A DNA stretch of 61,297 nt, filler included, from Sphacelaria rigidula (taxonomy: Eukaryota), in NCBI GenBank assembly GCA_964200075.2. It is 8 parts of 8 records of this genome, joined end to end, with 100 filler letters (N's around TTAATTAATTAA, not from the genome) between each part and the next. Parts side by side here need not be neighbours in the genome. Positions count along the whole stretch, not along the records: positions 7,676 to 15,250 come from CAXNAA020014272.1; 7 more parts are not named here. The stretch is one strand, 5' to 3'. Below the pieces are notes generated by a model that made no database searches, was not told the DNA's origin, and saw only the letters and a list, made by a program, of their open reading frames with translations. Shown piece by piece: positions 1 to 38,256 of the stretch. Numbering within the stretch: the stretch's first letter is position 1; each line of letters opens with the position of its first letter. The position numbers and the translations under genes were made by a program.

Positions 1-468
1 GACCAGGCTCGCACTCAATCACCAAGCGCGAAGCCCCGTGGTGTGTTCGGCGAGTCGCATGAAGGATGGGCTGCGTCCTGCTAAGTTTTTTTGGCCCGTA
101 CTGATTATTTTGCATTTGGGTTACAGCGTACACTGAGTTGCTTCATTATCTGGTATCGCCACTTCCAGAGATAGCCACGGCTTATACACTGCCTCATGGA
201 TGTCTCACTATCTCATCACTACGTAGTACGATCATCCCCACTGTGCGGAGTTGAGGTTCTCCCACGCCGCACATGATCTAGCTCGACTACCATCATGTTT
301 ACCGGGAAAAAAAACGCAAGCGCGAAAAAACAAATCGGTAGCCTGGTTGCCTAGCTTCCGCAGTGAGTGGCGTGTTTTACAGCGTCATCGCCAACCGACG
401 CCAACCCCGTCAGGGGCCCGCCTCTACAAAGGCGGGACAGAGCACGCCGGGTTCTCGCCGGACCGGGC
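1..468 (-). mobile_element. Poly(C)-tailed ~0.6-kb repeat, near full-length copy (3' tail lies beyond the contig start)
   Basis: Colinear with copies at 14345-14757, 38435-38940 and 45221-45820 (shared blocks such as ctggtatcgccacttccagaga and gttgaggttctcccac). The head abuts a G-run at ~469-487. Confidence 0.85.
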
Positions 469-713
469 GGGGGGGGGAGGGAGGGGTAGCGTGTCTGAAA
501 ACGAACTGTAGTGGTCACGCCCTCCTTGCAGAGAAACTCGCGTGCGTGAATCGTCCAGTAGCCGCGACGGACGGCAAGCAGGGCGACACGTCAAAATTCC
601 AGGCATGCTACTAACACTGTTGATAGTATGTACTCCAAAGCACATTGAACCGCAACTCTTGCTTGGCCTCCATAACCTCAACTCGACTTGCGATAAATAC
701 ACTCACAAATTAC

Positions 714-3236: not shown

Positions 3237-6020
3237 TGTAGGATATCAAAATATTTCGACATTTCCCCGTCTAGTATAATCGATCTGGGGTTTTTTCTCA
3301 CACAATGCCCAATAGTACAGAGTGACTACAGTACGACTTCGTTTAAAGTGGGAAATTTGATGATTTCTTCGTAATTGGCTATTTTCTTGGAATTTTTCGC
3401 TTGCCACCGCTCATCACATCGGGGACCTGAAGGTACTAGTATCCGCTCCACGTTCCAAGACAATAAAACATCTGTACTCAATATTGAGTAAATTACGGGC
3501 TAACCGGTCATCGGGGGTCCTACATCTTTTGCCCAGATTCTGACTCTTCGGTATTTTCGATTGATCGAGCCTGTCCCGATCGTACTCGCGAAGAAATGAA
3601 AAGCTCGTTTTCCTTCGATTCTCCCTACTGATTGCACTATTATTCTACTACTTATTGCAATGGAGCCGAATAACTGTTTCACGGTCAATAACACCCTCCT
3701 GATAAACGGGGTACCTACTCGTATTGCCCGATAACATCGACTGACACTAACTTGGGCACTGGGGGGGGAGACGATCTGATTATTTTACCAGAATCTATCG
3801 ACGCTAGCAAGTTCGAATTTTATCCAAGATTATATGTGAGAAAAATACCAACTTCAGCCGTGCCCATTTCGAACGTGGGGTACTATATATGTCGTGGGTA
3901 CAAAAAATTCGACTTGACGGTCGACAAGGGAAAGGGAGTGCTGGACCCCCCTCACGATGAAAAATAAGGCAAGCACCGCAGAAGGAAGGTGGAGAACTGA
4001 AACAAAGAAGATAAAAACTCCTGTGTTGGCTTTCGTCCTGTGTGACCCCGGCTGGTGCGCCCACATATACCGAAGGGTGTAGACCAACTTCCAAAATAGA
4101 CAGAATACAACACAACACACACAGGATCATAGCACTCTGCGCACATTCTGTCATTTTCTTCACCATTATCCACATTTTTCCTGTCATGCCAGTTTCCCAC
4201 GTCTTTTTCCATAGCTCGTTTTTCCATACTGTGTCAGAGGCCTTTTGTATGTCCAGAAAGAAACAGTACGTTATGAGCCCGGCGTCTTCCCTACCTTGAA
4301 CAATCTTACCTAATATATACACATGGTCCACGCAACTACATGTCGGTCTCAAACCTGCCTGCCCCTCGCTGATTTTTCCTTCCTTCTCTAGCATCGTTCC
4401 TACTCCTTCGTTCAAAAATCTTCCAGAATGTCTTCCCTACGGTGCACAGCAGCGTTATCCTTCTATAACTTCCCTGGTTCAGCCTTGTCTCCTTTCTTGA
4501 AAAGGTTTACTGCTGCTCCTTGTCTCCACCTCTTGGGTGTGTACTCGTTTTCCCACATTCAATTATACAGCATAACCATCATGGTAATCATTCCCTTTTC
4601 CCCGTGCTTTGGGAATTAGTTCACTCAAAATGTCTGCTCCTGCTACCTTTCTGTTCTTGAGTTTAGCTACACACTCCTCCACTTTCTCTCTGATGAAATT
4701 TCTCTGCAATTCGTTTGGGCCAATATCTTCCCGTTTCAATACCTCTACATTTGCCTCTGCCCACGCGTTGGTTTCTTCCTCGAATTTCGCGTCGAAACTG
4801 TCGGTAGTTGTTGGTGTCCCCAGTCTTTTGTAGTGCTCTGCTGGTACTTCTCTCTTTCCCTTCAAACTACTAACCATTTTACCGTTCTGTGCTCTCGAGG
4901 TAGCTATCACTTGTCTGTCTCTCCTGCGTTTGCCCATAATCCCTTCTGTCCCTACCCACATTTGTTTCACCCCGCCATCGACATCTTCATTTTCCTCATC
5001 AAGAACATATTCCCATATCCCCGTCTTTTTCTCCTCCACCATTTATTTCACCTCATCTCTAGCTTTAGCGTATTGCTCCCATCCTACCGTACTTTTCCTC
5101 GGTATACATATTGCGTGGGTCTCCCTCCTTACTGTTGTAGCCTTCTTTACTTCCGCATCCCACCATTTTACTGCCCTGCTGAATACGATTATTTTCTTCC
5201 CTATAACTTCACTTCTTGTGGTCTTGACCAACTACTCCCATCCTTCTATAATATGTGCTCCTGCTCGACCCCTTTCTATTCCGGGATCAATTGTACCTAC
5301 GCTTTCCAACAGCTCGGAAAATATAACTGCACTTTCGGCCATCTCTTCTTGGAATTCTCGCTGTTTTTCTTGTACTTTTTAGTTTTATGTATGATCCATT
5401 GGTACGACTTCCTACCCCGCCCAGTTTTTGCAACTCTCGTCTGTCGGCTTTCTGTCCATATTAGACAATGATCTGTAGTTCTCACGTCCTCTGCGCATAC
5501 ATGTACTTACATTTCCTTACTATTTCCATACATTTTATTACTGTGTAGTCAAGAATGGAGCTTTCTGTATTTTTTCCTTGGCGGTGTGTAGTCCTTGTAT
5601 ATTGCGTCTCTGACTTATGTGCTCTATCGTCCAACGTCTTCATCTCGTTATTTTCAAGGAACTTCATCACCTCTACCTCATTCATCGTCGCCTGCTCCTC
5701 CCCGTAACGCCCAATGATATCATCCGGCTGAATTGCTTTTCCTACCCCTTCATTCAAATCTCTCACTAACATTACTTTCCCTTGCCTTCTATACTTCGTG
5801 TGCATCTGCTACCCTCTCTCCAAACTCCCTCTGTATATCGTTCACCGTACTCTTCGATTCTGGGGGCATACAGATGTTCCCTACGAAGAAGTCTTTCGTT
5901 CCCCGCTCTCCTGGTACCTTTATCCATATGCTCTCGTCGAATTTCGTGTCCTTGGTCACTCTTATCATGTCGCGTGGGGGGTGGTAACCACCGAAGGATC
6001 GGCAAACTCCGCCTGTCGTC
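3237..6020 (-). mobile_element. Degenerate non-LTR retrotransposon (APE endonuclease + reverse transcriptase), interrupted by an insertion
   Basis: APE motifs LVRDLN, SILDY, TDHCLIW. RT motifs KLKNRKVAGAD, EGQAGLRP.CSCVDH, CFFLDIQKASDTVW. Many frameshifts and stops. RT resumes as LDGEMSKYFDILQ at ~3237-3277. Confidence 0.9.
3278..4128. mobile_element. Composite insertion splitting the LINE RT; includes a probable retroelement 3'-end fragment at ~3965-4122 with a (CAACA)-like tract
   Basis: The RT reading ...ECAQSAMI / LDGEMSKYFDILQ rejoins when this block is removed. Boundaries are approximate. Confidence 0.6.
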
Positions 6021-6627
6021 GTCTTGTCAGTACTTTGCTAAGATATGTGATACATTTCAATCGATCTCAAAATTGGTCATACTCGAAGCGTGCTGTGATT
6101 CGTCCTGAAGAAATGTGGGTCAAGTGTGCAGCGTTCAGCCCAAAAAATCGCGATATTCGTCATCATCTACGAAAATACGGAGGTGTTGATATTGATACAA
6201 AAAAAAAATGTTCTATAAAATACTGGATGTGCTCATATTTCGTCGAATGTAGATGATGGCCACAAATCTCCAAATCGATTGGTTTTTGATCGAGCAGCTG
6301 GCAGCCGAGCTACAGTAGGTGTGAACCAGTAGGTTTCAGCGCTTTCGTCTGACAGGGTCGTTCGACCTTATCAGATTGCCTACGTGCAGCTAGTTGCCTT
6401 GTCGCGGTGGTTACCACTTGCTCAGCCCATGATGGTTATCCTACATAGTGCATGATAAAACAACGGCAAGCTACCCATACCATGCGATCTATTAGCGCAA
6501 CAACCGACTGGTACTGACCGTACTCCTATTCGTTTCTTGCATGCCTGGAAACACATGAGCTTCCAGCCACTGACATTACGCGTGCTTGACATTTGAGCAT
6601 CTGCACCCCGTCCGCTTACTTTTCCAG

Positions 6628-6840
6628 GCGAAAACGGCGCTGGTCGTAAACGTGATTGGATTCTCTCTTCTAGAAGCCACCGGCAAACGCAGCTCCATCC
6701 TCACCGCATCCGGCACGTTGAACGCCTTCATATTAGGGATGATCCTGTGGGCAACCCTCGGAGGGTGGGGGTGGGGAACGGCGGTGCTGTACCTGGCAGC
6801 AGGGTCTGCCGTGACAAAACTGCGGAAGAAGAAGAAGGAG
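6628..6840 (+). CDS. Internal exon of a DUF92/TMEM19-family membrane protein (VTE6 phytyl-phosphate kinase-like)
   Basis: tttccAG acceptor, GTCAGG donor, 71 codons, phase 0-0. LTASGTLNAFILGMILWATLGGWGWGTAVLYLAAGSAVTKLRKKKKE follows the DUF92 pattern LT..G...A..LG...W..LG..G......Y...GS.VT......KE. Confidence 0.85.
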
Positions 6841-7513
6841 GTCAGGGGGGCATGGTTTGCATCGGGAATATAGGTGCTTGGTTCAAATGACTTAGCCGTT
6901 GAGCCGTGGGTTCCATTACCCAGTTCCCTCGACACGTGTTCCTCGTCAAGAAAACTCACCCGTAAAGGAGGGCATACGATTCCGTTGCTCCGCGTTGGGT
7001 GCCCGACCCAACACGGCAATGTTGAGCAGGGGGTGAAGAGTTTTGACATGCTCATGTATCTTGATACACGCAACACAGACACTCACTCGCTGTCATCGCA
7101 CGTCGCCCCCCCCTTGGATGTTGTTGCTCCAACCAGTCCATGGGGATTGCCGAGGGCAGAGGTGGTGCACGAGGGCCGGAAAACGTTTGGGGGTCAGCGG
7201 CGACAGGTGCGGGCACGCTGTCGAGAGTTCGGGAGATGACGGAGCGGGAGGGGAGGCATATTTCCATGTTTTCGTAGAGTTAGCACGCGTCAAATACACG
7301 TTTTCAACCGTGCTCAGCGTTCATCAGGTACACCACCTGGACAGTTTGATCATTCTCTGAGAGAATACCCCCACATAGGGCCGCCTCTGTGACTTTCGCA
7401 TGTTGTAGCGTACTCGGGGTTTGCATTCCGTTCCTGTGAGGCCACGTGTTTGACCTGGTGTTGTCGGGAGTACATACCACCGGTACAGTGGGCAAGAGGC
7501 TACGAAATGTCAT

Positions 7514-8934: not shown

Positions 8935-10086
8935 GCGTTGAACGTTGGCGTGGACAGTGAAAAAAACTCCGGTCAAGGAAATTCACCTGCACGACGCGAT
9001 TCAACTCAATCAAGCTCAGTGATGCTACCTATACAACATGCTGCTCATTACAGTCGGTCTGTAGATCAGATATACTGTACTGCTGTCTTTTCCCCGTTCA
9101 GTGAAAGTAGTATGATACAGTACTGTGATAGTACTCACTGCCCATGCACGTCTGCCCTGCACTCGCCGGCTAGATGGGTCTTTGAAACCTGTGATAAATT
9201 ATGTACTACATATTTTTACTGAGGGGTGCGCGTTTCGGAGGGGAAAGTGTGACTTTTCGACGCTCTCCACAAGAAGTAGCACTGATTACTGGTTCTTCTT
9301 TTCAAACGAATGACGAAGAGTTGGACCAACTTTCAAACTTTCATATTATTCGCTATCGTTTTCTGATTTTTTCCAATCAATTTCTCATAAAGGCCTAGAG
9401 AGAAAGTCCGCGAAGGTCGCGCTGGGAGGACCGGATTACAGACAGGTTCTCCAGACACGAGCCACACAACCCACACGTTCCATACGGTTACACTCACAGA
9501 AGCACAAAAAGAAGCTAGCGACCGTCTTCTCATCATGATGGCTCAATGCGGTCGCGTTCCCGCCGCCCCCCCCCCCCTCCGCCACAAGGGCACGGTGCGG
9601 CTTTCTCACCCCGGACTGATGACCAACGAAGCAAAAACCGAACCGCGCAAAACAACATGCGGCGTTTTTTGTGCCGGTTCGGTAGCAGGCGGCGCATGGT
9701 CGGTGCACGGCGCGCAACAGGCATGAAGAAGAGTGAGTGTAATGCAATGCCTTGCGGGGTTCCACTGTGGCCCGACAAGAAGGCAGATCACTTACTCTTC
9801 GTAGCTATGGAAAGTCCTCAAATTGTTCGGGCAAGCTACAGTCAACGTAACATTCTGCTCTGGAGTGTCCACCTCAACGCGAGTGAAACGCACCTTCGAT
9901 GGGGCATCTGGAGATGATCCACTCGTGGGGAACATGGAACGTTGAGCTACCGCACGGTGTGCTATAACAGCTGTTCGGCTGCTGGTACGCTGATTTTCGA
10001 GACGCGAGGCGGGGAAAAGACAGTAATCGGTGGAACGGTTTGGGATCAACACCAGAGTTTAACCGGCAGAATTTTTCGCGCAGCAG

Positions 10087-10871: not shown

Positions 10872-12952
10872 GAGGATAAAATACTGTAAAAGGTGGTGTG
10901 CGAGGGCGATAAAACTCGATTGGCGTAAGCGGGAGTCAAGATTAGTGCTGCTGCACGGTGGTATGGGAAGCAGCAAACTTGTGTGTTTAGACACAGGCGC
11001 ACGAGCGTTGGGCTGTGCGTGATGTCCCAGGTGCTGAACGTCCGAAGTCTTGTACGTTGTTTGCGTTTAACATCGCCCCACTCTTTCCGCTTCGCCGTGT
11101 CCCTGTCCGCATGCAGTCGACATACAATCCATGGGGAAAGCCCGGTTCTGGGGCACCCCTTCGCCATCCTAATGGCGAGCTGGTGACCAACGTCAAGTGA
11201 GTAATATAGAGTATAACAGAAGTATACGTACTCTAGGATGTTGGGGGTGGCCATCATGTTCGCACGACCTATGGTGAAGCTCACACAATGGCGAACTTCA
11301 TGCCAACAGAGAAGGACCCCAGGAGCGAGTCTTTTTGCGGCGTTTTCCCTTACGAAGTAGAGGATCTCCGCAGCTAAGCCCACTACCTGCCGCTATCTAC
11401 GGGCGATAACTACCGTCAAAGATAGTTATCAATTTCGCCAAAATGCGCTACGATGAACCGGTAATTGAGAGTTTCGGCAAAACGCATCCAGTTTTGTCTG
11501 TCACCCAAAGAGACTGTTGGGCTATCAAAACGAATCGTCAGTAGTCCCTCTGCAAAGTGTTGTCAGCGTAACACGGCATGACGTGGCTTTTCCCCCATTT
11601 GCCTGAGCGGGCCCGTACGGTACTGTATTTGGATATGGCATAATACGCACCACATGGTCACCGCGCGCCCAAATCTGCATTTCAGTAGCCCCCACAGATT
11701 GAGTGGGGCTTCGATGGTCGGATACTTCGTAGCCCAAGCCGATGTTTCATAGCTCAAACAGTGACGCTGTTGTCTACCTTCTGGAGTCTAGGTTTTACCG
11801 GATACAGAAAGTCCCGCCGGTACAGCTTGCCCTGTATGATAGTGAAAATGAGTCGTATCCGTCCGTTGCTGCTCTATAGACAAGGTGCATCTCAGACAAG
11901 ACTTTCTCTGTCGGTACTCGAAGGCGTGAGCTACAAGTAAACGACAAGTGGTTCATATGTCGGGGAAACACCCCTTGTCATGGTAGGATCATACCTCGCG
12001 TGTGCGTACAGTCGTACTGGCCGCAGACGAGTGAAGGAAATTTGAGACTTTTACAGACACCACCCCTGCCGACTGTGTACTATTGACTGTACCCCAAACG
12101 CGCCCCGAGCTCACAGCTCACAGCACGCCAATCCCCCAACATGTGGGCCACACCTGCAACAGCCAATCTAACGCTAGAGGTATCTTGGGTCATCAGGCAT
12201 GTCTTGAATGTTTCCATGGCCATTAGTTCTATGTTGTTCTAGTCATGCTGCCTCTACTGGCGTTGTAGCAAGCAGAGAACTGCAAAGTTGAATCATCCCT
12301 GCCTTAGACTTGCAGCGGTCAGTTCTTGACATTTTTGCTAGCGGAAGCAGGCAAATCTCGTTGTGTTGACAAAAACGATGTTTTCATGTTTCTGGTGACC
12401 GCAACAGCGCAGGTGTTGATGCTTTTCCCGGGCCTAAGGCGGACAAACGTCACGCTGAGGAAAACGCTTTATCGAAACTCTCATCTGAAAAACGGATATT
12501 CTTTCTTGTAAGATGTGTGCACTTCGCGTCCCCAACTCTGTGCATTCTATATCTCAATAACCCGTCGTCGTCTCGCTCGGGTGCAGAGCATATCACCGCG
12601 CAAAGCAGCAGGGGCTGATTGCGCAAGATCTTTCGCCAAATGAGATTCGAGACGATGAAAAGCCCTTCGGATTCACGCTATTGGATGCAGAAGGTGTGCA
12701 GTAGAATGCGGTGATCCATGCCCTACGACAAGACTTTAAAATCACAGGGTATGTAAACATCTTCGTTTTCGCGAACCATTTCCCTGCGAGCATCGTGTCG
12801 GCACAGAGATGTGTTTGTTATCCCCGCTGAGCACGTATCGCGGAAGAGATGGGTTGATTCTTTGAGACTACAAACTCTTAACGGGGCAGGGGAGGGGATG
12901 AAAGTTTGAAGGAAAAAGCACACAAAATTTTCCGTGGATGAACGCAGGGGGG

Positions 12953-12993
12953 TGTACTCATGATCATGCATGCCATGGTCATGAGACCATTGA
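12953..12993 (-). mobile_element. 41-bp 5'-truncated copy of the poly(C)-tailed repeat with an 18-bp target-site duplication
   Basis: gatgaacgcaggggggtg at 12937-12954 and 12994-13011 flanks tactcatgatcatgcatgccatggtcatgagaccattga. Confidence 0.85.
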
Positions 12994-14344
12994 GATGAAC
13001 GCAGGGGGGTGGGTACACCTTTTCGAGCGGAGCGGGGAATATTCGAGGACCCATGGACCGCGGAATGGCCCGGAAGACAAACGAAGTGATCACGTAACGA
13101 TTCAAAAGTAAGAATATGCTCCTGTACAAGGGGACTAGGTTGGAGCAACCCGCTGTTAAGTCGTATTTTATCATTTTCTCGCGACTTAGGACTCGCTTTT
13201 GCGCTGTCCATCTGCCTGTCTTGCCGTCAACTAACTGTTCACGACGGTAACGCACCGACTATTCAAATACGGGCCGCGTGCAGTGGTGAAGAGCGACGAC
13301 ACATTCTCTGACCGTACTCTTGCATGGAGCCTTTGATTATACACGAGAATTCTGGACACCCTTGTCTACAGTACAGACACTATGCGGTATGCGATAAAAC
13401 ACGGCACCGTACCGTCTGTACACGTCCAGAAGAGCTTGGACAATGTGGAAGCAGCCCAACACCAAAACATGCTTGCGCGTGCCAGCACCTCTGACAATAT
13501 CGGCACTGTTTGATCAGAGTCAGAGACTATTGTGCTGCTTGCATACATCGCAAGAGTAGAAGGGTTAGCGATCGCACACCACTACATGCGGATGGACTGG
13601 TGGTAGACAGCGAATGTGTACACACGACGTGGCTTCACCATGTCACGAGATTCTCCTAGACTTTGCCGTATGCAAACACGTGAACGTCCCCTTGTTCCTT
13701 CAGATGGGCGTCTTACGTCGCAGAAATTTGGCGTTATTTTCCCGTTAGCTCACACGAATCTTTTGCATGGGGTCTCTTGATCACTTGTCAGGGCACTTGA
13801 AAACGGACCTTTGATACACGTTTCCGCACGCTACGCCGACACAACCCGCCTTTTGGTTGTCAGACTGTACAACCTCATGAGATCCTGGTGGCAATGCGCC
13901 TGCAATATACAATACCATATTTATGTTGCCCTCTTAAGCTTGCTGTTCGGATACTTGGTGCGAAGATACTTTCAGTATGATGCGTAGATCCTGGACCCTT
14001 GTTACACCTGTAAGAAAACAGAGAAAAGCTGGACAATATCATGGGGCGGCGTATCCACCGTGTTGCTTGTACCTGAGAAGTCCTCTGTCCATGTCAGCGC
14101 ACGAGTTGTGGTGATGTTTGAGCCGACGTAAGGACACATGCAGTACACAATTGTGTACGCGTCTCTGCAAGAGGGGTGCGATGCAATATCGTCTCTAACG
14201 GTGAGATGCGCGTAGAACTGTCCGATACCTGGCGGTGTAAAAGCTCTGTCGTAGATATGCGTATTTTGGAGTTACCTCGATTTCCGGCTGTGTGGCGCAA
14301 ACAAGCACGGAAAAACAGCCTTTTTTCTTGGCACGCCCCCAAAC

Positions 14345-14757
14345 TAGCCTGGGCCGGCGAGAACCCGGCGTTCTCCGTCCCGACTTTGTAGGGGCGGACC
14401 CCCGATGGGGTTGGCGTCGGTTGGCGATGACACTGTGAAAATACGCCATTTACTGCGTAATCTAGGCAACCTTGTTACCGGTATGTTTTTCGCGCTTGCG
14501 CTTTTTTTGCGGTAACCAGGATGGTATTATAGTCGAACTAGATCATGTTGTGCTGCGTGGGAGAACCTCAACTCCGCACAATGGAGATGATCGTACTACG
14601 TAGGGCTTGAAGGGTGAGGCACCCATGAGGCAGTGTATAAGCCGTGGCTGTCTCTGGAAGTGCCGATACCAGAAAATGAAGCAGCTCATTGTAGACTGTC
14701 ATCCAAATGCAAAATAATCAGTACGCTCGGGTCGAACAATCTTAGCAGGATGCAGCT
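14345..14757 (+). mobile_element. Poly(C)-tailed repeat copy with intact head, 3' part missing
   Basis: Reverse complement of 60-468; starts at the same point (gcctgggccggcgagaacccggcg). Confidence 0.85.
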
Positions 14758-15476: not shown

Positions 15477-16270
15477 GTGCGTCGGGATATTCCTTGCAGA
15501 CAACAGTGACGAGTGGAGGAAATCATGTATCTTTGTGTCACGGAAAAAAAAATGGTCGTTCCTTACATGAACCGTAGTGAATCCAACCAAGTCGTTGATT
15601 TTATCCAGTACACGAACGGACCCACCCATCACAAAAACCGGTGATGGTTACATCATCTACCCGCGACCCCGCTGTTCCTCCCCGTGACCACGTCAAACTA
15701 AGTTGTAATTCATCCGCGATTACGACGGGGGGCAAGGAGACACCATCCCCACCGCACTGGAAGGGATGAACGAAGTTGTTCGCCTTCTACTGCGATACTG
15801 CAGGCGTGAAACCGCACCCATCACTCAATACTCCCGCCATATTTTGGATTCCTTTTTTCGTTCATCATGTTGTCTTATTTTTTTCAGACGAGATCTCTTA
15901 CTGCACGAGTACCTCTGCTGTTGTTGACACGGGTCGCACAAGTCATGCGTTGCCTCCACAGACGCGGTGGGCAAAACCCTAAAAGCAGATGAAATAGCGC
16001 CTCCGGCAGCGATATTCCACGTCGACACGGTGTCCATATATATATGCGATTTCGAAGCGCCGTACGTGGACTGGACGTGAATCCACGATAATCCACAGCA
16101 CACGTACTTACGCTCCTAAATACCATAATAACATGGGTCGAAGAAACCCGCCTGATTTGGTAGTGGCATATTCAGGGATATGTTTTATGCGTACAGCGAG
16201 GTGGCGATGAGAAGAAATTTAGATGTATATAGCAAGAACCGACGACAAAAGCATTGGAATTCTTTACCAG

Positions 16271-17570
16271 GATTTCCATGTACTGCAAGGAAGTTTGCCT
16301 GTTCACGAGAAGGCAGCAGGCGAAAGCTTTTCGCAAGGCATACAAGGCACTGGAGGTGTTCACCACCACTCTTCGCTCCCTCGACAACTTCAAAGGAGCT
16401 GTCGGTGGAGGTGGCCGTGTGCTGCCCACTCGTGGCGTGACTCAGCCCCGTTCATTCGAAATCCGCCCAGCGGGGACGGAGCAGGTGACCGTCAGCATGA
16501 AGAAGCACATGCATACTACAGTCTTCACGGGAAAGACGGCCGCCGGGATCTACGAGGGAGCCCCTCACCCGCTCTTCCGCATGGGTGTTCCAGATCTGGA
16601 GTGCGCACCTCCGTTCGACCTGAAGGAGGTGGATGCCGCACAGCGAGATAACATACTGGCTCGCTACAACGCCGTCCACAGTCGGCTAGCTGCCCTCTAC
16701 CCCCTCCGTGCGTTGCACCTCCAAGCACCCCAAGCGGTGACACTGTATCCTGATTGCTGTGTACTCTATTTATTTTGTTTTCGCTGCGGACGGCGGGTCC
16801 AAGTTTCTCACCCTATTTCTCAGATCATTTTCCCCACCGCAGGAGCGCATCCTAGCGCTGAATACCTCAGATGCACTGCCTCCACCCTCCCGTGCGACGC
16901 GCAGATTTCGACAAACAGCAGGCCATCAAGGACGACATGGCGACGTTCCACCGAAAGGCTCAGTGCCGTGGAACCTTCCGTGTCATTGGTTCAGCGTAAT
17001 GGCGTGCAGTCATCTGGAGGATCACGGGAAGAGAGAGCGGGGGCAGATGGGGATGTTGATGTAGTCGAGGGGTCTGTGGGGGGGCGGAAGCCGCCTGTCG
17101 GTGAGGATCCGGGAAAAGGTGGTGTCGATAACTCAGTGCTAGGTAGCGGGGGCGACGGAGATGGCCATCCAGCAGGGTATGTTCCCTCGTTCGACAAGGG
17201 ACATTTTGTTTTCTTTCTCGGTGACAAAAGTCCGTTTTTGGTGGGTAGAGTTACGGACAAGCGCGAGGGGACCGATGGCGAAGCAGGAGTTCAGGTGCGC
17301 TGGTGGTCGCCGGCCACCTCCGCCATTCGAAACAACGCTTCTGCCTACAACATCGGCGAATACGGCAAAGGAAAAATCACAGCGCATTACAAGACAGTGG
17401 GAAACAGTGAAGGGTGTACAATGGGCAGTAAGAGCAAGAGACGAAAGTTAGTGCCGGACGTAGAGTGGATGCAAGCAGAGCTGGTTATCGCTCCGTGCGA
17501 GAAGCTAAACGTTGGTGACAGGATTCACAAGCCAGTATTGGATACAATGGAGAAGAGGGCCAGGGGTTGA
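16271..17570 (+). CDS. Downstream exon(s) of the Sola-like/DUF7869 protein, with a C-terminal beta-rich (SH3/Tudor-like) region
   Basis: tctttaccAG acceptor, then ISMYCKEVCLFTR...LRSLDNFKG. Long open frame to 17570; probable intron ~16735-16842. C-terminus FDKGHFVFFLGDKSPFLVGRV...VQVRWWSP. Confidence 0.6.
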
Positions 17571-20495: not shown

Positions 20496-21144
20496 GTATG
20501 ATCATTTACTCACTAGCAACGAGTGCGTGAACACCCGTGCAAAACTTGATGAATAGATCGATTGATTGTCCGCATGCTGAAGTAAGTGATCCCCGAGCGA
20601 ACTGGTCTCGGTCAAACCGTGAGGATGAACAGCCAGGAATCAGCGTCAATGAGTGAAAGGGAGAGGACCATGCAAGCTGTACGTTACTGGATGTGACGAG
20701 AGCGCACTAGATGCTAGTGAGGCACGATTCCTGGGCTGAATCATTTTGCTCTTTGAAACAGAGCGGCTCTGCCGAATGAGCGACCCCACACTCGGGTCGT
20801 AGGTGGAGGCAAGTCAACCCGCAAACAAACGCACAACGCAACCAAAGCAAGGCGCATACCAACCCCAGGAAGGGTTCGACAAGCACACGAAAACCAACTG
20901 AGAGAGCAACGGGTGTGTCTAGCGCACTCACCTACCCGGAGCAGCCGGCGGCCCGAGCGTAAACAGTCGGTGACGTAGCGGCCATCTACTCGTGCAGCGA
21001 GCGGTTGTCAGCAACTACCCTGAGCTCACGCGGCACATGCGCGGCAAGCATGAGGCAAAACCGTGGGTGGACATACATGTCAACTGATGATTTCTAGTTG
21101 AGGCAAAGTCTCTCAGGCACAAGCTGTCTCTCCCCCTCCCCGTC

Positions 21145-21255
21145 CTGCTCCGTCTCGGAAGGGATGCGTGGTCAAAAGCCACACGACCAAGGCAAGCAAC
21201 AAATGAGTACGTCCCCACCTCCACACGCCCCCAAGCTTCTCCCGTGAGATTGTTC
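21145..21255 (+). repeat. Dispersed ~110-bp repeat, second copy at ~32648-32757
   Basis: tgctccgtctcg.a...ga.gcgtggtcaa...acgac.aaggcaag.aa.aaatgagtac shared between contigs 3 and 5. Confidence 0.75.
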
Positions 21256-22167: not shown

Positions 22168-22925
22168 TGTTAAGTGTCTATTATGTATATTTCGCTCAAC
22201 AATGGGGTGCTGGTCAGTTGATTCCAAAAGTGAATACATGTGTGGTTTATGGGTGGATTCTTTTGTGAGTTATCATCTATACGGCAGTCTACAAATACAC
22301 CACAAAGATGGGCACAGGGTAACCGGAAGCGGAAATCCTAGGCTTCTGATCCAGACCTACTCTCTCTCTCTCTCTCTCTCTCTTACTATATTAAAAAACG
22401 TCGGTTTTCCGCCATCGATGGAGACGCCCGAAGATCCAAGAAATAAGTATATCTATACTACTGAAGCTTCCTCGCAGCATAGTAAGGTCTTGGCCCCTAC
22501 CGTACGACGCTGCTGCCCTTCGCCCCTCCACGCCGAGCACTGACTATCCTTCTCATTGTTCTCGCGCTTTTTCGCGTTTAATCTTGTTCACCGACCACGT
22601 CTACTTTTGTGCTTGCAATAGTTTTCACCACCACCCCCTCCTTCCCCCCCGCTTCACATCGCAGCGGTGACGACGGCTCCACTGCTGCACAAGGCAACCT
22701 CTACCTCTCTGCAAGTGTGTACATGCGGCCTGGAGTCCGCCATAAAAGATGCTGCAGCGTGGGTGCTGTACAATTCTCAGGAGTATGAAGAGGCGGTTTC
22801 TGAGATGAACAGGCGAGCTGCTTGTTGATTGAAAGGGAGGGAGGGGACGGGGGGGGGGGGGGGGCGTGCTCAGTTGTTGCTTTCCTTAGTCCTCTACCCA
22901 TTGCCCACCCCTCCCTTCCGAGAGG

Positions 22926-23025: not shown

Positions 23026-23160
23026 GTTGCCTATGGCAAGAATGATCATGGGTACCCCCCCCCCCCCCCCCCCTCCGCCTTTGGTGACGCACCCATGAGG
23101 CAGTATAAACCGTGGATGTCTCTAGAAAGTAGCGGTACCAGAAGATGATACAAATCATCG
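23026..23160 (+). mobile_element. Poly(C)-tailed repeat: 3' end with a long C tail, followed by an internal fragment of another copy
   Basis: ctatggcaagaatgatcatgggta(C)n, then cacccatgaggcagtataaaccgtgg. Confidence 0.8.
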
Positions 23161-24384
23161 GAGAGTTTCGGAAAACGTTTTTCCCGTCTTGGAGTCAGAG
23201 TGGAAGGAAAATAGCCGGTAACGGTACATATTCCACTCTGATTTTTTTCAGAGTGAGAGTGTCATTTGCACAACTCCACTCTGTAAACTGTGTTCCTCTT
23301 CAGAGTTCATAGCGGAGCGGAAAAGAACCACGCCCACCTTCACCACCATGGTCACCTCCAGTCCGAAGTCAATAGACCCTGACATGCAAAGTGGAAGATC
23401 CATCATCCATCACAACTGCCATGCTCATCACAATGGCCCATTCACGACGTAGAAAGGCTTGGCATCGCAATGGTATCAGCATTTCGCGTGGTTGTGTTGC
23501 GTGAAAATTCAATTGCTCGACGGATACACGTTGCCTCGGGTGCAGTTCCTCACTTTTGCCTGCTTCAGCTGGGAGAAGACGGTGAGAACTATTCTTGGTC
23601 TTCAGCGCACAAGCAGTACTACACCTGGCTGTATTCCCATCCCGTGAGAGATCATGACGTGTTGCACCACGGTTATGTGTAGCATGTGGAGAAACTATCG
23701 CAATGTGGCCGAGGTCTGCTGTCTGAAAGAGCTGCGTACCGTACTGTTTGTACAACAGATTCTCTGTACGGTATCGCTGTACAAACTTCACCGCATCGTA
23801 ATGCACTGATTCAGGGTTCTGCATTGCTCTCTCTGTACTGCACTGTCCTCCACACTGCACAGCACTACAGTGTCTTGTAGTCCGCCGTGGTGGACTGAAG
23901 TACTGGAGGTGCAGTGAAGAAGCGCGGTGTACGGTGCGCGCGATGCCGCAGTGTACGGTACAGTCAGGGTTGTGTCGGCCTATGCACTTCAAAACTGGAC
24001 GCTGGTCGATCGTACATTTTGCGGAGCAACCTGCGGTCAATTACTGCGACGGGACAAAATCACGTCATCTCACCTCACATCAGCTTCCGCTGTGAACTTT
24101 TTAACGTCCACTACTGTGAAGTTTCGAAGCCTCCACTCTGCATTCCGATTCGATTATATAAAAAAAATGTTCCGAAACTCCCTTATGATGTATTTGACTG
24201 ATAAATTGTCGCAGTTGAACTGATCGTCCTTTGAGTCCAGCCGTGATCGCATGATAGACGTCCCCAAGAAAAGCAAAACTTGAACACTCGCTCAAGCAAT
24301 TGAGTCACAGAAGAAATGTCGAACAGAACAACATGGTAACCGAAGACATGAAAAAAAAAAAAAAACTTCAACAAAAGCAAAGCA

Positions 24385-24630
24385 CAGAAAGAAATGATCA
24401 TTGGAAGCTGTCATCCAAATGCAAGATGATCAGGACGCTTCGTGCCGAACAACCTTTAGCAGCGTGCAGCTCACCCTTTTCGACTCACCGAACATCTCCC
24501 AGCGCTTCCCGCTTATTTTTTTGTCGCAAGCCTGGTCCAGCGGAAACCCGACGTGACCTCCGTCCCCGTGTTGTAGGGATGCACGTTCAATTGTCATACG
24601 ACTACCGCATGAAAGATCATGAGTACCCCC
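24385..24630 (+). mobile_element. 5'-truncated copy of the poly(C)-tailed repeat
   Basis: ctgtcatccaaatgcaag...gcctggtccagcgg...gatcatgagtaccccc. Confidence 0.8.
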
Positions 24631-27600
24631 GCATCACCCGCCCACCCCCCACCCGCACTAGAGGCGTGCTTTGAATTCTGGGTCATTTCTGTGGCACATA
24701 TTCTTATTTTTATGAAATGCAGATTGGTGGCCATGGAAGATGGTACTACGACGATGTGTAGCGGGGGGGTTTAGCGAGTATGGATGGTGACGCAGGGCGA
24801 AATCGTACGGATGATGATGACACCATCTTGAAATACAAAATACACCGCGCGTGCGGTGTGGTTGCCTACTAGTGTGCGCACTATGCGTAAAGCATTGTTC
24901 ACGAAACCGTGCATCGCAGGACTTATCCTGTTTTGCGTAATGATGGATGGCGTAGTACCAGTGCACGATACCGCGGCCATCGCATGAAGCGACGTTCAAC
25001 ATACAGTACATTTGCACACGGTAGGAAAGCGTGTGCTTGACGGTAAAAGCGTCCGGTTGGGAGCTACGTGTGGCTTTTCGATCTTTTTTTCGATCAAAAT
25101 TCAATGACTGAATACTGTACACGTTTTTTTTAGGATTCAAATTTGTTTTCATATGCTCCTAAAGAAGGCGCTGTTCCTTTCTCCGGGAGGGAAATCGTTT
25201 TAAAAAACTGTCGAGATGGTAGTATGTGCTCTCCATGGCAAACACTGTACTCTTTATCCCCATTTCACAGTCTGTGAGACAATTGACTGCCCTTTCGCTC
25301 CTGCTTTCGTACACCGCGTCTGGTGCGTGTTTTGATGCGGTTCTTTCTCGCTTTTTGTTCCGCTGTCAGGGTCGTGCTCGCTCAAGACTGGTAAACTGTC
25401 CGCGAACGCTGGAGCCGGCGGGTAAGTAACACCTGCCATCAATGTTCTTCACTTTCCATGTTGAATGTACATGTACTCGATTACGTGGTGCATCGCAGGG
25501 TATAAACCTCCTCTGTCTCATGAGCTACGGATTCCTGGGTTTACACGGGTCCTTGATCGTGTTCGATTGCGAAAAAGTTGTTTGTAAGGTTGTTTTCTGT
25601 AGGATACGGTTTTATTGAGTACCCGGTGTGTTTGCCCGGGTATTACCCGTACCCGACTGTTTGGTGAGTTATGTGAGCCTCCCGCACCGGTACCCAATAG
25701 TTATGTGAGATATATACGGAATTTTTATTTGTGTTCTTTCGTGAGGCAAAACCACGAAAGTAATAGCTGCCGTTTTAGTCCATCTACGTCGCTTTCCTTT
25801 CTAAGATGACTCACTAGACACGTGGAGACGGTTCCATGGCATCTTGGTGTTTTCCTATTGGACCGCAGTTTTTCTGGCCAACCCTGCATAGTTGTCCAAG
25901 GATCGTGAAGCACAGACGGAACCGTCAGCTTTCTCTGGACTTCGACCGTTTTTATACAAAAGTGCAAGTTTGGACAGGAAAAAAAAAGCTGCAGCAACCC
26001 GAAAGCGCGAATGTGTCCTGAAATCGTTTTGAGGAGTGGAGCAAGTCGGTCCAAGGTGCCAGAATTCACCGAGCCCTCGTAAAGCGCTTAAAACGCTGCA
26101 GAAATATCGAAAAAGTAGCTGCACATATCAGATGGTTTCGGGAAACGATCCCTTGTTATTTCCGAGTGCAAATATCTCGAAATCAAAGGGCGAAATGAAA
26201 TAAGAAATCCAATCGAAAAAAGTTGAGGGGTCACCACATTTGACGAAAGGGAAACTAGTTTTCCTCTACATTCTGATCTCGAGATATTTGCACTGAAAAA
26301 TAAAAAGTAAGAGTTTCCATGATCTCTCTATTCTCATTTCGTTTTGCCATAAGAAGCGGCCTTATCCGGGGTACGGGTACAACCTTGTATATTTACCCGG
26401 ATGTGGGTGGAGGTTTCTGAGCAATCTCCATGATGTTCCCGACAGGTATGTACCTTGTGTGAGCATCCCATACTAGTACTCGACAGTTATGTAGTATCTG
26501 AAAGTTCGATAGTGGTACCCGACAGTTGCTAGTCTCACTAAGAAATATAATACCCTACCGGACATGTACCCGTACCCCACATTGCAAAACGTTTTTACAC
26601 CTATCGTTTTCTGAAATTTTTGGGTCGAAACCGATTAATGTACTTCTATAATCCTCATTCGCACCCCAAACGTCGACGAATGGCTGGAACAAAATCAGTC
26701 CGCCCGAAACTGGCCATATTTCGCCCCTATTCCGGGCGAAAAACCCGAAAATAATCAAGAAATGCTACCGTTTGCTCAAAAGTTGGCGGTCTTCCGCATC
26801 TCTGGGGCTTGATTCTTAGAGAGAAGTCCAGAAAAGAAGACGAAAGCAGTTCCAAAATATTTCCAGAATATTCCTAAAGGTGGTCAAGACCCAACTTTTG
26901 AACAAAAAGCGTGCGTCGCTGTTTTATCCTTAAAATGATACGAACTCGAGTATCGTGCATACATGCCTGTGAGATGATCGCTACTTGTGACCCCAAAGGC
27001 GCTCACACAGGGAACATACGAAGTACTACTGCAGCGTTTGCCCTTTTCCCTCGCTGCTTGAGCACAAACTCGACGTCGGTATTTTCCAGAGACACAAGAA
27101 AGCTGGCGATGTAGAAAAAGTAGCGTCTTCCGACACATCTCGACGAGACCCTTGCTCCGCTACTCGAACTGAACATGTATCTGTCGGTGTGATGGGTGTT
27201 GTTATGATCGAAAAGCTTTAGTTTCGAAACTGGCATACATGAGGAAGTACGATAACGGGGGGTGCTATGCGTCGAAAGTGGCGGCCTGATGTCTCTCCCC
27301 GTCATATATGCAAAAGCTGTGATCACTGAGTGAGAAATCTGGATGTGATTGCCTTGGTAAAAATGAGAAGTCCACGGTAGAGGTTTGCACCATTTCGGCC
27401 CAGGTGTGTCTTACTGAGGGGCTGATGAGTTTAGGAACTACGCAATAGCATGAATCGGGATATTGCCGTTTTGACATTCATCCGAGATGGCTATAGCTCA
27501 TTGGAAAACGAATCGTGGCGTGGTCACAAATATCTCGTGCGTCGTGTTTTGGATGAGTGAAAGGCCATTGAAGGAACAAAACGGAACCAATTAAATGTAT

Positions 27601-27993
27601 CGGTGTAAGTATATCGTTCTAGATTGCGTTCTGAAAAATGGCTGTGCTTGTCCAGAAAAAAGGGTTGCTGCTCGTCATCAGGGGAAGCTATTGATTTATC
27701 TTGTGCTCTGGTTGTCCAAAAGCGCTGTGGCGTGCTCGCCACCGAGTGATACAGCGATGGCACACACTGATACCTGTGTCGAGCGCAAAGAACCCCAGAC
27801 TCGTGAACGCCGAGTCTGATTTTTTCACCGCCAGGGTGGATTCTATCCCTTGCTTTTCCTTCTCCATTCTGTCATTATCTTCCACAGGTAGGAAAATATG
27901 AGCTACCTGACTATTTTACTCCTCATCAGTCTTCTGATCCGGATCATGACATGGCCCATCTGGCCCCATTTTTTTAGTCACTCCCCACAGCGC

Positions 27994-28120
27994 CGTAAAT
28001 TCGCGTTTGATGATTGAGTGCGAGCCTGGTCCGGCGAAAACTCGGCGTGCTCCGTCCCGGCTTTGTAGGGATGCGAGGTCAATGGTATCATGACTGTGGC
28101 ATGTATGATCACGAGCACAC
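27994..28120 (+). mobile_element. 5'-truncated copy of the poly(C)-tailed repeat with a 15-bp imperfect TSD
   Basis: cactccccacagcgc (27979-27993) vs cacaccgcacagcgc (28118-28132), 13/15 identical. Confidence 0.8.
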
Positions 28121-28660
28121 ACCGCACAGCGCTGGACGCCGACCACGCGGAATAGCGCGAAGTTAGGGCTTTGACTTCTCAGACCCGTCTTTCACGGATT
28201 TTGTGCTTTTGGACAAAAGATCCGAGAGTCCACTCCGACTCGTTGTTCAAGGTAGCTCATGAGCTGTTCGACGCGAGGGTCCTCTTCGATGAGGTCCTTT
28301 TTGAGCACTTCATGAGCGGTGCGACATGTGTAATGTTTGCCCTTTCCTTCCTGTGGAGACGAACCTATTGTCGCGAGGGATCAACCCACATCTTCCCTTG
28401 AAGCTCTTCATACCCTCGTGACAGTTTACGACCCAGGATTGGGTCAGCACCGAATCGCGTCGACTCGCTGTCTTTTTTCATGCTACCGACGTACTCGAGG
28501 TTCTAACGGCGGAAACGAGATACTGCCATGAGAGGGCGAAAAAACCCGTACGGATCGTACGTTCATTTTGGAGGATGACATTCCCGTGTTGTACATTCTT
28601 TGTTTCCGCGCAAGATGAATGTGGCTTACCTCACGAGACTGCAAGTGCCTCCGATTTCCT

Positions 28661-28745
28661 GTTGATTGATTGATTGATCGTCGCACTTTAACTGATCCTC
28701 CAGGGGTTCATCCGTGGTCTCATTATGGACGTACTCAAGAAAAAC
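28661..28745 (-). mobile_element. Retroelement 3' end with (ATCA)n tail; related ends at ~42185-42257, ~43470-43550 and ~49910-49972 (+)
   Basis: Shared gaccacgg.tg.acccctg...gtgcgac followed by aatcaatcaatca. Confidence 0.7.
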
Positions 28746-29459
28746 GGAATTCAAACACGCTGTAAGGGAGAAAAAAAACCCCTCTATACTGCAGTAATTA
28801 TCCCCAGGTTTAACGATTTACAATTGAGGTTCCCTCGGACAAGGTATGGTTGTCTTCAACTGATGAAGCAACCCACCGAAAGGGTACACCATACTAATTT
28901 CAAGTATACCAATGTGGCAGATTCGTGCACCGAACTAGAAGTGACGTTTCCCCGGCAACGAAAGCCCGCATATTCCACTTTGTGGATGATGACCGCGGTT
29001 GCATTCCACGAGGATTAATTGTTGTGCGATGATTCATGAATTGGTCAATTAAATCAGTCAAGTACCCCATTTGTTTTGGAATTATCGACATGCGTTTGTA
29101 ACTATTACACAGCAGTGACGGGTTGCGGTAGTGTGAGCTATTCCCATCAAGCCTCACTTGTCGAATACAAAAAAGCAATGAGATCCTTCAAGCACGCAGA
29201 ATAGAAGGAGCTTCCCCCGAGTTGGTCCGGGTGTGCTGAGATGAACAAACCGGATGTGTCATGGGTAACTGTTCCAAAATTATCGGAACTTCAGGTCAAA
29301 TACATGTAGGTGAAGCCACCAGTTGAGAACTCGGCAGTTGAGACCTTGATCCTTCACCCTTTCGAAATATACGGCCTTTGAGCACACACTCGATAGTTGA
29401 CATAATGTTCTCGGAAATTTCCGGTTTGTGACAGGTGCAGTATTAGATTTTAGTATGGA

Positions 29460-29668
29460 CACCGAAATCCGGATCTTTAAAGGGGCTACGCTCCTGGCGT
29501 GCTCCTAGCGTGCACAGAACGCGTCTTTGTCTGAATCGGCGCCTGGGGCGCCGATTTGAGGTCTGGCAACGCACACTTCGCCTAGCCAACACGTTCCCTC
29601 CCTTGCCCGAGGGTTCTTGGTATGTCTTCATTGGGATTGGGTAAGGGTAAGGTTTAGGGTTAGTGTTA
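29460..29668 (+). repeat. Dispersed repeat ending in degenerate (TTAGGG)n; related copy at ~33905-34090
   Basis: ggatctt...gggg...tcctg..gtgct...acg.gtctt...aatc.gcgcc shared; both copies end in TTAGGG-like tracts. Confidence 0.55.
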
Positions 29669-30119
29669 TTCGGAAAGCATCAGCACCTGCACAAACCATG
29701 AATTTCCGAGAAATATCTGTCAACTACCGAGTGGTGAAGTCACCTCTGAGCACAACCTGTGATGCCTGAACAAGAATCTCACACTAGAACATATATTGCG
29801 GCTGCTGGTAAGCCACAGATGAAATGAGAAATCAAGCCTCGGGCCACCCAAGAGGTTAAGTAGTGCCGCCCGGGCCACCCAAGATTAGTCAATGCCTTCA
29901 TCATGTTGTGTTTGTTGTCGTTGCTGTTGTTGGATTTTGGAAGAAACCCCATCCTCCGTTAATTTCTCGCTGTCTCTCGCTGCTTTTTTGGTTGGTCGCA
30001 GAGCTAAGTGCGACTGCGGGCCGGGCTGCTCCTGCGGCTGCTCCTGCCACAAGTGATGAAGCCCGAGAGAGAGGGATGGACGGCTGCTCACCATACTGTA
30101 GTTGATGGGAGTGTTCACA

Positions 30120-30600: not shown

Positions 30601-30700
30601 NNNNNNNNNNNNNNNNNNNNNNNNNNNNNNNNNNNNNNNNNNNNTTAATTAATTAANNNNNNNNNNNNNNNNNNNNNNNNNNNNNNNNNNNNNNNNNNNN
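30601..30700. other. Artificial contig linker
   Basis: N44-TTAATTAATTAA-N44. Confidence 0.98.

Positions 30701-38217: not shown

Positions 38218-38256
<39 letters not shown>

Follow-up and report, generated by a model that had tools for sequence, protein, structure and literature searches.

The window analysed here is a stretch of 61,297 nucleotides, filler included, from the brown alga Sphacelaria rigidula (GCA_964200075.2); it consists of eight whole contigs, each of 7575 or 7574 nt, joined via N44-TTAATTAATTAA-N44 spacers. One non-coding family of about 0.6 kb recurs in contigs 1, 2, 4, 6 and 7, the contigs in which the original prediction had placed more than ten fragments: BLAST and MAFFT on the window gave 13 fragments along with three mini-copies. 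The sense-strand end of the family, GATCATGAGTACA, occurs nine times in the window at two mismatches or fewer, versus 1.57 expected from shuffles, and none of 100 shuffles reached nine. A related subfamily, whose copies terminate in the same manner, is found in contigs 3 and 5, the last ~65 nt being common to both subfamilies. As for other content, a DUF92 exon lies at 6574-6870, with its best matches in Ectocarpus and Ascophyllum (62-71% identity), and a 445-aa ORF at 16233-17567 had no match in the protein search. The copies and their flanking features are as follows.

1-470, minus strand: long copy whose 5' end, GGTCCGGCGAGAACCC, is complete and directly follows a C-rich tract of 22 nt (465-486); the 3' part is lost at the contig start
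7518-7575, minus strand: copy 3' end with the short tail CACCCC, truncated by the contig end
7676-7747, minus strand: internal part of a copy, 5' end ~210 nt from the 3' end; the contig start cuts its 3' side
12937-12954: target-site duplication (TSD) copy adjoining the element 3' end, sense-strand reading CACCCCCCTGCGTTCATC; its first 8 nt are the element's CA(C)n end
12955-12993, minus strand: 39-bp, extremely 5'-truncated copy, TCAATGG...GATCATGAGTA, which matches copy 38432-38927 at its 3' end with 84% identity
12994-13011: TSD copy at the 5' junction, 18/18 match
14346-14757, plus strand: copy complete at the 5' end, where AGCCTGGGCCGGCGAGAACCC follows GCACGCCCCCAAACT, and without the last ~190 nt
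21143-21213, plus strand: related subfamily, ~70-nt copy ending in ...CAAGCAACAAATGAGTAC and C-rich sequence, preceded by CTCCCCCTCCCC
22835-22925, minus strand: related subfamily, 3' end ...AACAACTGAGCACG with a C16 tail, truncated by the contig end
23026-23079, plus strand: 3' terminus of a copy, GATCATGGGTAC, located at the contig start and followed by a C19 tail
23083-23169, plus strand: internal fragment that begins ~290 nt from the 3' terminus, follows the C19 tail in head-to-tail order and lacks a 3' end
24398-24656, plus strand: ~230-nt copy, C-rich in its tail; the 5' boundary is uncertain, and a TSD was not found
28000-28119, plus strand: 120-nt copy with a candidate TSD (27979-27995 / 28118-28134) and TAAA, four filler bases, at the 5' junction
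32645-32725, plus strand: related subfamily, ~70-nt copy with the tail CCCACCCCTCCCCC
38376-38434, plus strand: copy 3' end at the contig start, whose C-rich tail of ~30 nt leads directly, head-to-tail, into the next copy
38432-38943, plus strand: ~500-nt copy with a C-rich tail and a candidate TSD (38407-38422 / 38926-38941) in low-complexity DNA
45219-45850, minus strand: ~600-nt copy with a C-rich tail, a private 95-nt insertion (45529-45623) and a candidate TSD (45219-45229 / 45840-45850)
45851-45885, minus strand: two 16-nt mini-copies, CATGAACATGAGTACA and CATGAACATGAGCACG, with C runs after each and a long poly(G/C) tract on to the contig end
46050-46180, minus strand: fragment that loses its 3' side at the contig start; its 5' end directly follows CTTCCCCCCC and is ~290 nt away from the 3' terminus of the element
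47190-47223, minus strand: 9-nt mini-copy (47197-47205) within a C tract, C14 - ATGAGTACA - C7

Six of the 13 family fragments are cut by contig ends, and their lengths are therefore assembly artefacts; the fragment at 23083-23169 may continue at 24398, beyond a 1.2-kb insertion. Pairwise likeness among the copies is 72-88%, and the family is therefore not a young burst. Regarding coding capacity, ORFs of at least 95 aa overlapping the copies had no Pfam match, and the family tests as non-coding. A 94-aa reading frame through it resembles two unnamed ENA proteins at 65-66% identity, which are uninformative on species. Two patterns searched in metagenome_contigs and in genome_contigs gave 0 loci each for copies outside this genome; three viral_contigs loci for the 17-nt tail pattern were rejected as chance matches of 17-20 nt, without further similarity.

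Ends, C tails and flanking duplications

The copies share one end and differ in the other. Ten fragments have their 3' side within a contig, and eight of these end in ...GATCATGAGTACA plus a C-rich tract; the end is absent in 14346-14757 and 23083-23169. Measured from this end, the ten informative 5' ends lie at about 39, 120, 210, 230, 290 (two copies), 500 (two) and 600 nt (two). The fixed 3' end and the variable 5' truncation, here spanning ~39 to ~600 nt, were both part of the original prediction and are borne out.

As for the tails, they range in the window from C4 to C19, with C-rich tracts of up to ~30 nt, and C runs also mark the opposite side of the copies: the sense strand carries CCCCC within 25 nt upstream of 8/11 5' junctions, versus 2.6% of window positions (binomial P ~3e-11). 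The association holds family-wide: three DNA runs, as well as one run guessed to be RNA (X8), yield contigs in which poly(G/C) adjoins the fixed end. In runs X1, X2 and X8, the unmatched sequence before 45234 has a consensus of at least 20 G followed by TG, over 367, 366 and 59 contigs, respectively. None of the listed runs that contain the sequence is recorded as RNA, and the X8 contigs are therefore no firm evidence of transcription. There are 29 long C/G tracts in the 60.6 kb, several of them with no recognisable element beside them. Summed contig depth along the element peaks in the middle, at 45384-45507, and not at the tail, a measure that cannot rank the parts of the element. No convincing conserved hairpin was found in the last ~60 nt of five copies (alifold -7.2 kcal/mol, one compensatory pair among 17).

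Three flanking duplications had been claimed for the family. The clearest is GATGAACGCAGGGGGGTG, which occurs at 12937 and 12994 as a perfect 18-bp direct repeat flanking the 39-bp copy 12955-12993 exactly; read on the sense strand, the repeat opens with 8 nt, CACCCCCC, that equal the CA(C)n terminus of the element itself (12947-12954). The window holds 14 perfect direct repeats of at least 18 nt that are not of low complexity and are spaced by 1 kb or less, and the 13 others lie in tandem or dispersed repeats. The two remaining duplications exist, 14/17 identical at 27979/28118 and 11-13 nt, C-rich, at 45840/45219; they lie in C-rich DNA, barely above the control of mismatched flanks, so that the claim stands above chance for the 18-bp pair and is weakly distinguishable from chance for the other two. 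Overall, the five copies with both ends within a contig comprise one with the perfect 18 bp, one with 14/17, two with C-rich repeats of 11-13 nt (scores 13 and 11) and one with none; matched flank pairs score 18, 13, 11, 9 and 4, versus 4-10 for 20 mismatched control pairs. No empty site was seen, the single unique-flank junction examined (45071-45266) being occupied in runs X1, X2 and X4.

Head-to-tail junctions account for 3-4 of the 11 5' junctions in the window and recur in many public-run contigs, with an upstream partner that ranges from 9 nt to a full copy and with tails of varying length. In several contigs, 45526-45532 or 45259 is joined, across 4-14 filler letters, to the G tract and TGTACTCATG at 45845; these are head-to-tail truncated copies. 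The two mini-copies at 45851-45885 have a private variant in common as well as a 16-nt perfect repeat, which suggests that they stem from one event or from local duplication.

The fixed 3' end, the variable 5' ends, the 18-bp TSD with its 8 nt of tail identity, the enrichment of C runs, the family-wide poly(G/C) and the head-to-tail copies together support the insertion of a C-tailed RNA into C/G tracts by target-primed reverse transcription (TPRT), as had been proposed. The family is thus likely to be a non-autonomous, non-coding non-LTR retroposon of ~600 nt with the sense end ...GATCATGAGTACA(C)n, copied by TPRT, most probably via an autonomous LINE.

Element class and alternative explanations

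True TIR, LTR or Helitron termini, which the original prediction had named as evidence against it, were looked for and none was found on the copies; likewise, no hammerhead ribozyme and no tRNA, 5S or 7SL head was found in the family. Inverted repeats within a copy are absent, the only inverted pairs of the family being whole copies in opposite orientation, and a ~45-nt direct repeat, which pairs the 5' end with a segment ~55-100 nt ahead of the 3' end, is internal and not terminal. An LTR, TIR or Helitron element was rejected on the lack of such termini, the Helitron-type 5'-TC...CTRR-3' ends included, and the presence of the 18-bp TSD. Rfam gave 0 hits in the whole window at the gathering threshold and no relevant match at E values up to 10 for two copies, one of them with the full 5' end; ARAGORN gave 0 genes in the window. 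A SINE in the strict sense was rejected as well, the tRNA/5S/7SL Pol III head not being found with these two tools.

It is unlikely that the fragments are simply the 5'-truncated 3' ends of an autonomous (C)n-tailed LINE, with no separate non-autonomous family. Shared consensus continues beyond 45817 in 217, 208 and 179 contigs (X1, X2 and X4), and most family members are therefore longer than the two copies of 500-600 bp; moreover, a degenerate LINE fragment is present in contig 1. However, the two longest copies (1-470 and 14346-14757) start at most 5 nt apart, at AGCCYGG and directly after C-rich tracts, for a total of ~600 nt, the full length rebuilt from 14346-14757 and its missing ~190 nt; the two copies of 500-600 bp are ~57 nt short of this 5' end. 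The lack of a Pfam match in the overlapping ORFs also argues against a truncated LINE, as does the Ectocarpus counterpart, described as a 607-bp non-autonomous element in the entries of a curated library (PMC12477816). Less probable still is a Penelope-like or retrozyme-type element whose head-to-tail copies would arise in one retrotransposition event, as pseudo-LTRs or by rolling circle on circular RNA. The head-to-tail junctions, in the window and in the contigs, and the mini-copies at 45851-45885 are what it would predict, but neither a hammerhead nor any other ribozyme emerged from the Rfam searches above, the upstream partner and the tail length vary from junction to junction, and the Chlamys PLEs of Ectocarpus carry (A)n and not (C)n 3' ends, as listed in the same library (PMC12477816).

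Least credible of all is a dispersed satellite or segmental duplication without transposition, the poly(G/C) being a sequencing or assembly artefact. Many contigs do break off within the repeat or a long G/C homopolymer, and contig ends cut 6/13 fragments; yet several C tracts lie within contigs with unique sequence on both sides, a perfect 18-bp duplication of complex sequence surrounds the 39-bp copy, and different copies have unrelated flanks. In addition, contigs of three runs span the junction between unique flank and element at 45071-45266 with no or almost no differences (0, 1 and 3 other letters).

Proposed priming from C tracts and brown-algal counterparts

In TPRT of the L1/Alu type, the copies have a fixed 3' end, a homopolymer tail, 5' truncation and variable TSDs of 10-20 bp; tail and target are complementary, and older tails receive new insertions. 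The family considered here resembles L1/Alu in the fixed end, the homopolymer tail, the truncation, the tail-complementary target and the insertion into older tails, whereas it carries a (C)n instead of an (A)n tail, its presumed partner is a single-ORF RTE-type LINE, and a Pol III head was not detected; a (C)n tail cannot stem from polyadenylation as usually understood. Simple-repeat-tailed LINEs that target matching repeats are known as well, among them the microsatellite-specific R1-clade LINEs and Zepp of Chlorella. With these, the family shares a tail that matches the target repeat and the formation of head-to-tail arrays, the difference being that the repeat is here a C/G homopolymer.

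The retroposon reading would work as follows. An autonomous LINE with the same 3' end and a (C)n tail, corresponding to the RTE-X partner in Ectocarpus, would copy the family by TPRT: its endonuclease would nick a C/G tract on the G-rich strand, the ...GGGGGGTG-3' terminus released there would pair with the 3' CA(C)n of the RNA, and cDNA synthesis would be primed from this paired end. Early stops in reverse transcription would produce the 5'-truncated copies, and a staggered second nick the duplications of ~13-18 bp that start in C-rich sequence. Since every insertion would deposit a new C tract, the tails of older copies would become targets in turn, which would account for the head-to-tail copies and the mini-copies. 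We infer the RNA intermediate, the annealing-based priming and the identity of the partner. The window contains no autonomous LINE with the 3' end of the family; its only RT fragment (3807-4436, minus strand) ends before its own 3' end, and in the protein atlas it matched generic RT clusters only, at 0.88-0.89, under the atlas's bar of 0.9.

The closest counterparts are in the curated TE library of Ectocarpus published in 2025 (PMC12477816), whose entries describe RTEX-1 as an RTE-X LINE with "(C)n 3'" and a "C-rich" TSD, and RTEX-2, also an RTE-X LINE, with "(C)n termini/TSD". RTEX-N1, in turn, is listed as a 607-bp non-autonomous element with >6000 copies that "can be present in tandem", its "60 bp 3' end 83% RTEX-1/RTEX-2"; (CAA)n RTE and (CA)n CRE LINEs, further examples of simple-repeat tails that match the target, also occur in Ectocarpus, together with the Chlamys PLEs with (A)n ends (PMC12477816). 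By description in these entries, the Sphacelaria family is like RTEX-N1_Ec32 and RTEX-N2_Ec32 in its brown-algal host, its size of ~600 bp (607 and 604 bp listed), its non-coding nature and a 5' head of unknown origin; RTEX-N1_Ec32, given as its genome's most abundant single TE family, further shares the possibility of tandem copies and has partner LINEs, RTEX-1 and RTEX-2_Ec32, with a (C)n 3' end and "C-rich" TSDs. The last 60-100 bp are common to several families in Ectocarpus, and here the second subfamily has the same last ~65 nt. As for differences, the host is another brown alga, whose DUF92 exon is only 62-71% identical to the Ectocarpus and Ascophyllum proteins, and no partner LINE was seen in this window.

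On this likeness by description, the family is a new example of a kind already catalogued as the RTE-X/RTEX-N1 elements of Ectocarpus, and neither the mechanism nor the kind of element is new. PMC12477816 was the sole match of a literature search for RTE-X in brown algae, and no C-tailed LINE appeared in the non-LTR, poly-C and TSD literature, among the titles and abstract starts of the matches listed. Contig records matching the family at 80% likeness or more number 23,425 to 32,978 per DNA run; these 23-33 thousand records, which are not a copy number, suggest a family much larger than the ~6000 copies given for Ectocarpus.

A further step can be put forward tentatively, at somewhat less than even chances: the element would make its own landing pads, the pairing of CA(C)n with a nicked G tract, as in the 8-nt identity at 12947-12954, being needed and the fresh C tract of each insertion being the preferred next target. 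If true, the process would be self-reinforcing, even from abortive insertions of 9-16 nt, and it would account for the head-to-tail arrays, the mini-copies and the unusual density of C/G tracts in the genome; very many potential G-quadruplex or i-motif sites would also be seeded across a brown-algal genome.

In conclusion, pairs of (C)n-tailed LINEs and non-autonomous elements seem to dominate among brown-algal retroposons, and they appear far more numerous here than in Ectocarpus, with short-read assembly breaking at their tails. The family thus bears on why brown-algal assemblies fragment, and, left unmasked, a family of such size inflates the "unclassified" repeats in the annotation of these genomes. 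Finally, it could serve as a naturally occurring example of TPRT in which tail and target pair via a base other than A.

Copies and ends of the family

BLAST searches and MAFFT alignment gave one non-coding family with 13 fragments in contigs 1, 2, 4, 6, and 7, in agreement with the more than ten that had been predicted for these contigs. Regarding the 3′ end, three fragments lose it at a contig end, and the canonical end is present in eight of the remaining 10, with a C-rich tract behind it that varies from CACCCC through C19 to a C/T tract of ~30 nt; the motif GATCATGAGTACA, with up to two mismatches, occurs nine times in the window, against 1.57 expected from shuffles, with 0 of 100 shuffles reaching nine. 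The fixed end with its C tail is thereby confirmed. The two fragments lacking it are 14346-14757 and 23083-23169; the latter is colinear with 24398-24656 (same orientation, consecutive consensus positions), and both may be a single copy split by a 1.2-kb insertion. The 1.2-kb stretch between them, 23170-24397, ends in A15 and may be an insertion with a poly(A) tail within the family copy; its 223-aa ORF (23372-24040, minus strand) had no Pfam match.

As for the 5′ side, three other fragments lose it at a contig end, and the 10 informative ends are spread from ~39 to ~600 nt from the 3′ end, as expected from the variable cut points of the original prediction; the copies it gave as 500-600 bp are ~57 nt short at the 5′ end. 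The two longest copies (1-470 and 14346-14757) have their starts, at AGCCYGG, no more than 5 nt apart and right behind C-rich flanks, and contain the ~57 nt absent from those copies; within this 5′ extension, ~45 nt directly repeat a segment close to the family 3′ end.

Table. Informative 5′ ends (distance from the 3′ end) and mini-copies.
~39 nt: one copy
~120 nt: one copy
~210 nt: one copy
~230 nt: one copy, boundary uncertain
~290 nt: two copies
~500 nt: two copies, one spanning ~600 nt through a private 95-nt insertion
~600 nt: two copies
45851-45885: two mini-copies of 16 nt each
47197-47205: mini-copy of 9 nt

Eight pieces, each 7575 or 7574 nt long and separated by N44-TTAATTAATTAA-N44 spacers, make up the 61,297 bases; lengths this similar suggest that they are whole contigs from a fragmented assembly sorted by length. 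The contigs often start or end inside family copies or long G/C tracts; because many do so, fragment lengths at contig ends are assembly artifacts and not biology.

A second subfamily has the last ~65 nt in common with the main family and a different terminal 20 nt, ending in ...AAATGAGTAC or ...ACTGAGCACG and then C runs; it is present in the window as ~70-nt copies only, in contigs 3 and 5 (21143-21213, 22835-22925, and 32645-32725). The 3′ end common to both parallels several Ectocarpus families that have one 3′ end.

Contigs of four public sequencing runs (labeled X1, X2, X4, and X8; three probably DNA, one guessed to be RNA) were aligned to 44950-45870 at a likeness of at least 80%, with 23,425 to 32,978 matching records per DNA run for a stretch that also includes a second repeat (44950-45104). 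Before 45234, the unmatched parts have a consensus of at least 20 G and then TG (367, 366, and 59 contigs in X1, X2, and X8), therefore long C tails beside the fixed end are the rule; past 45817, 217, 208, and 179 contigs (X1, X2, and X4) continue with a consensus that agrees with the 5′ extension of 1-470 and 14346-14757. In several contigs, 4-14 filler letters link 45526-45532, or 45259, to a G tract and TGTACTCATG at 45845, and these are truncated copies placed head to tail. Contig depth is highest in the middle of the element, and such depth cannot rank its parts. The repeat adjoining the element, 44950-45104, is itself of very high copy, with a summed contig depth of 1.16 million in X1 versus ~70 for the unique flank 45136-45197.

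Insertion sites

The proposed insertion into C-rich tracts is supported by the 5′ junctions: eight of 11 have CCCCC no more than 25 nt upstream (sense strand), against a background of 2.6% of window positions (binomial P ~3e-11); the set omits copy 24398, with its uncertain boundary, and takes in the two subfamily copies. At 3-4 of the 11 junctions another copy's tail supplies the C tract, and these copies are therefore head to tail. The 60.6 kb hold 29 tracts rich in C or G (10 or more bases of 12), many with no recognizable family copy alongside (e.g., 38216-38253 (C36), 9559-9583, 30568-30592, 49428-49449, 53798-53815, and 61227-61253), which may be tails from further (C)n-tailed elements or insertions of a tail alone.

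Target-site duplications (TSDs) were scored as the best ungapped match between the 40-nt 5′ and 3′ flanks; the five matched pairs gave 18, 13, 11, 9, and 4, and 20 mismatched pairs, used as control, 4-10. The 39-bp copy 12955-12993 (minus strand) lies between perfect 18-bp repeats starting at 12937 and 12994, and this TSD is unambiguous; the window has only 14 perfect direct repeats of at least 18 nt, not of low complexity and spaced by up to 1 kb, and the other 13 are tandem or dispersed repeats. On the sense strand of the element it reads CACCCCCCTGCGTTCATC, with the CA(C)n end of the family exactly reproduced in its first 8 nt; as the TSD copy on the 5′ side has these 8 nt too, the target already had them when the element inserted. 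The repeat at 27979/28118 is a plausible TSD: its sequence is complex, 14 of 17 positions are identical, and its start coincides exactly with the element end, while TAAA fills the 5′ junction. Two other TSDs barely exceed the chance level of C-rich flanks and one copy has none; of the three duplications originally predicted, two stand out only weakly from chance. The target of the 39-bp insertion, 12994-13025, reads GGTGTACCCACCCCCC on the sense strand and resembles the family end GAGTACACCCCCC; speculatively, its C tract may be what is left of an older mini-copy.

Element class and proposed mechanism

Neither terminal inverted repeats nor long terminal repeats were found in the family copies of the window. 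No match to tRNA, 5S, 7SL, or hammerhead was obtained (Rfam and ARAGORN on the window; Rfam at E ≤10 on two copies), no ORF of at least 95 aa overlapping family copies had a Pfam match, and the consensus fold of five copies showed no hairpin that is convincingly conserved within the last 60 nt.

The family anatomy supports the original reading, in which an RNA with a CA(C)n end undergoes target-primed reverse transcription; here we infer the involvement of RNA, the annealing, and the enzyme. Nicking of the G strand within a C/G tract would free a ...GGGGGGTG-3′ end, able to pair with the RNA 3′ end and prime the cDNA, whose start at 12954/12955 would be TACTCATGATC; an early stop of cDNA synthesis would lead to 5′ truncation, and a staggered second nick to TSDs starting in C-rich sequence.

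Only one reverse transcriptase (RT) occurs in the window, in a degenerate non-LTR retrotransposon fragment at ~4080-6000 (minus strand), with frames broken by stops and cut off before its 3′ end; its RT domain stops after the early motifs near 4080, and an endonuclease-like stretch in the upstream frames was recognized by eye only.

Table. RT fragment and other features of the window.
3807-6000, minus: degenerate non-LTR retrotransposon fragment
3807-4436, minus: RVT_1 match, E 4.8e-4, below the Pfam cut-off
4001-6000: strong GC and AT skews, overlapping the RT fragment
681-1004, minus: weak DDE_Tnp_4 match (Harbinger/PIF-type transposase), E 1.1e-3, below cut-off
955-1366 / 1855-2266: 412-nt inverted repeat, 89% complementary, adjoining the DDE_Tnp_4 match
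6574-6870, plus: DUF92 exon (membrane protein), Pfam E 1.1e-8; protein search with only three matches (Ectocarpus fasciculatus, Ectocarpus sp., Ascophyllum nodosum; 62-71% identity), which assigns the window to Phaeophyceae, although not to a sequenced Ectocarpus
42696-42925: short local tandem duplication, 155-nt period, spanning a 10-N gap (42841-42850)
48001-48167: short local tandem duplication, 95-nt period
58305-58536: short local tandem duplication, ~83-nt period

Comparison with Ectocarpus RTE-X elements

The curated Ectocarpus TE library (Genome Biol 2025; PMC12477816) contains, among its RTEX entries, RTEX-1_Ec32, with a "single EN-RT ORF; (C)n 3′" and a "C-rich" TSD, and RTEX-2_Ec32, with "(C)n termini/TSD". 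The non-autonomous RTEX-N1_Ec32 (607/604 bp; "5′ head unknown"; TSD "C-rich") has a "60 bp 3′ end 83% RTEX-1/RTEX-2" and "can be present in tandem"; RTEX-N1 outnumbers every other single family, at more than 6000 copies, and RTEX-N2_Ec32 (188 bp) has a similar 3′ tail (PMC12477816). As far as these entries go, they cover every feature that had appeared unusual, the likeness being drawn from their descriptions. Scans of viral, metagenome, and genome contig collections with short patterns, for further family copies, returned nothing useful.

In conclusion, compared by description, the element belongs to a kind cataloged in Ectocarpus in 2025 and is an additional example from another brown alga, with family numbers apparently much larger than in Ectocarpus. 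What is added here is a clean 8-nt identity between tail and target at one young-looking insertion, a measure of how strongly C runs are enriched at 5′ junctions, and a hint that tails serve as targets for later insertions.
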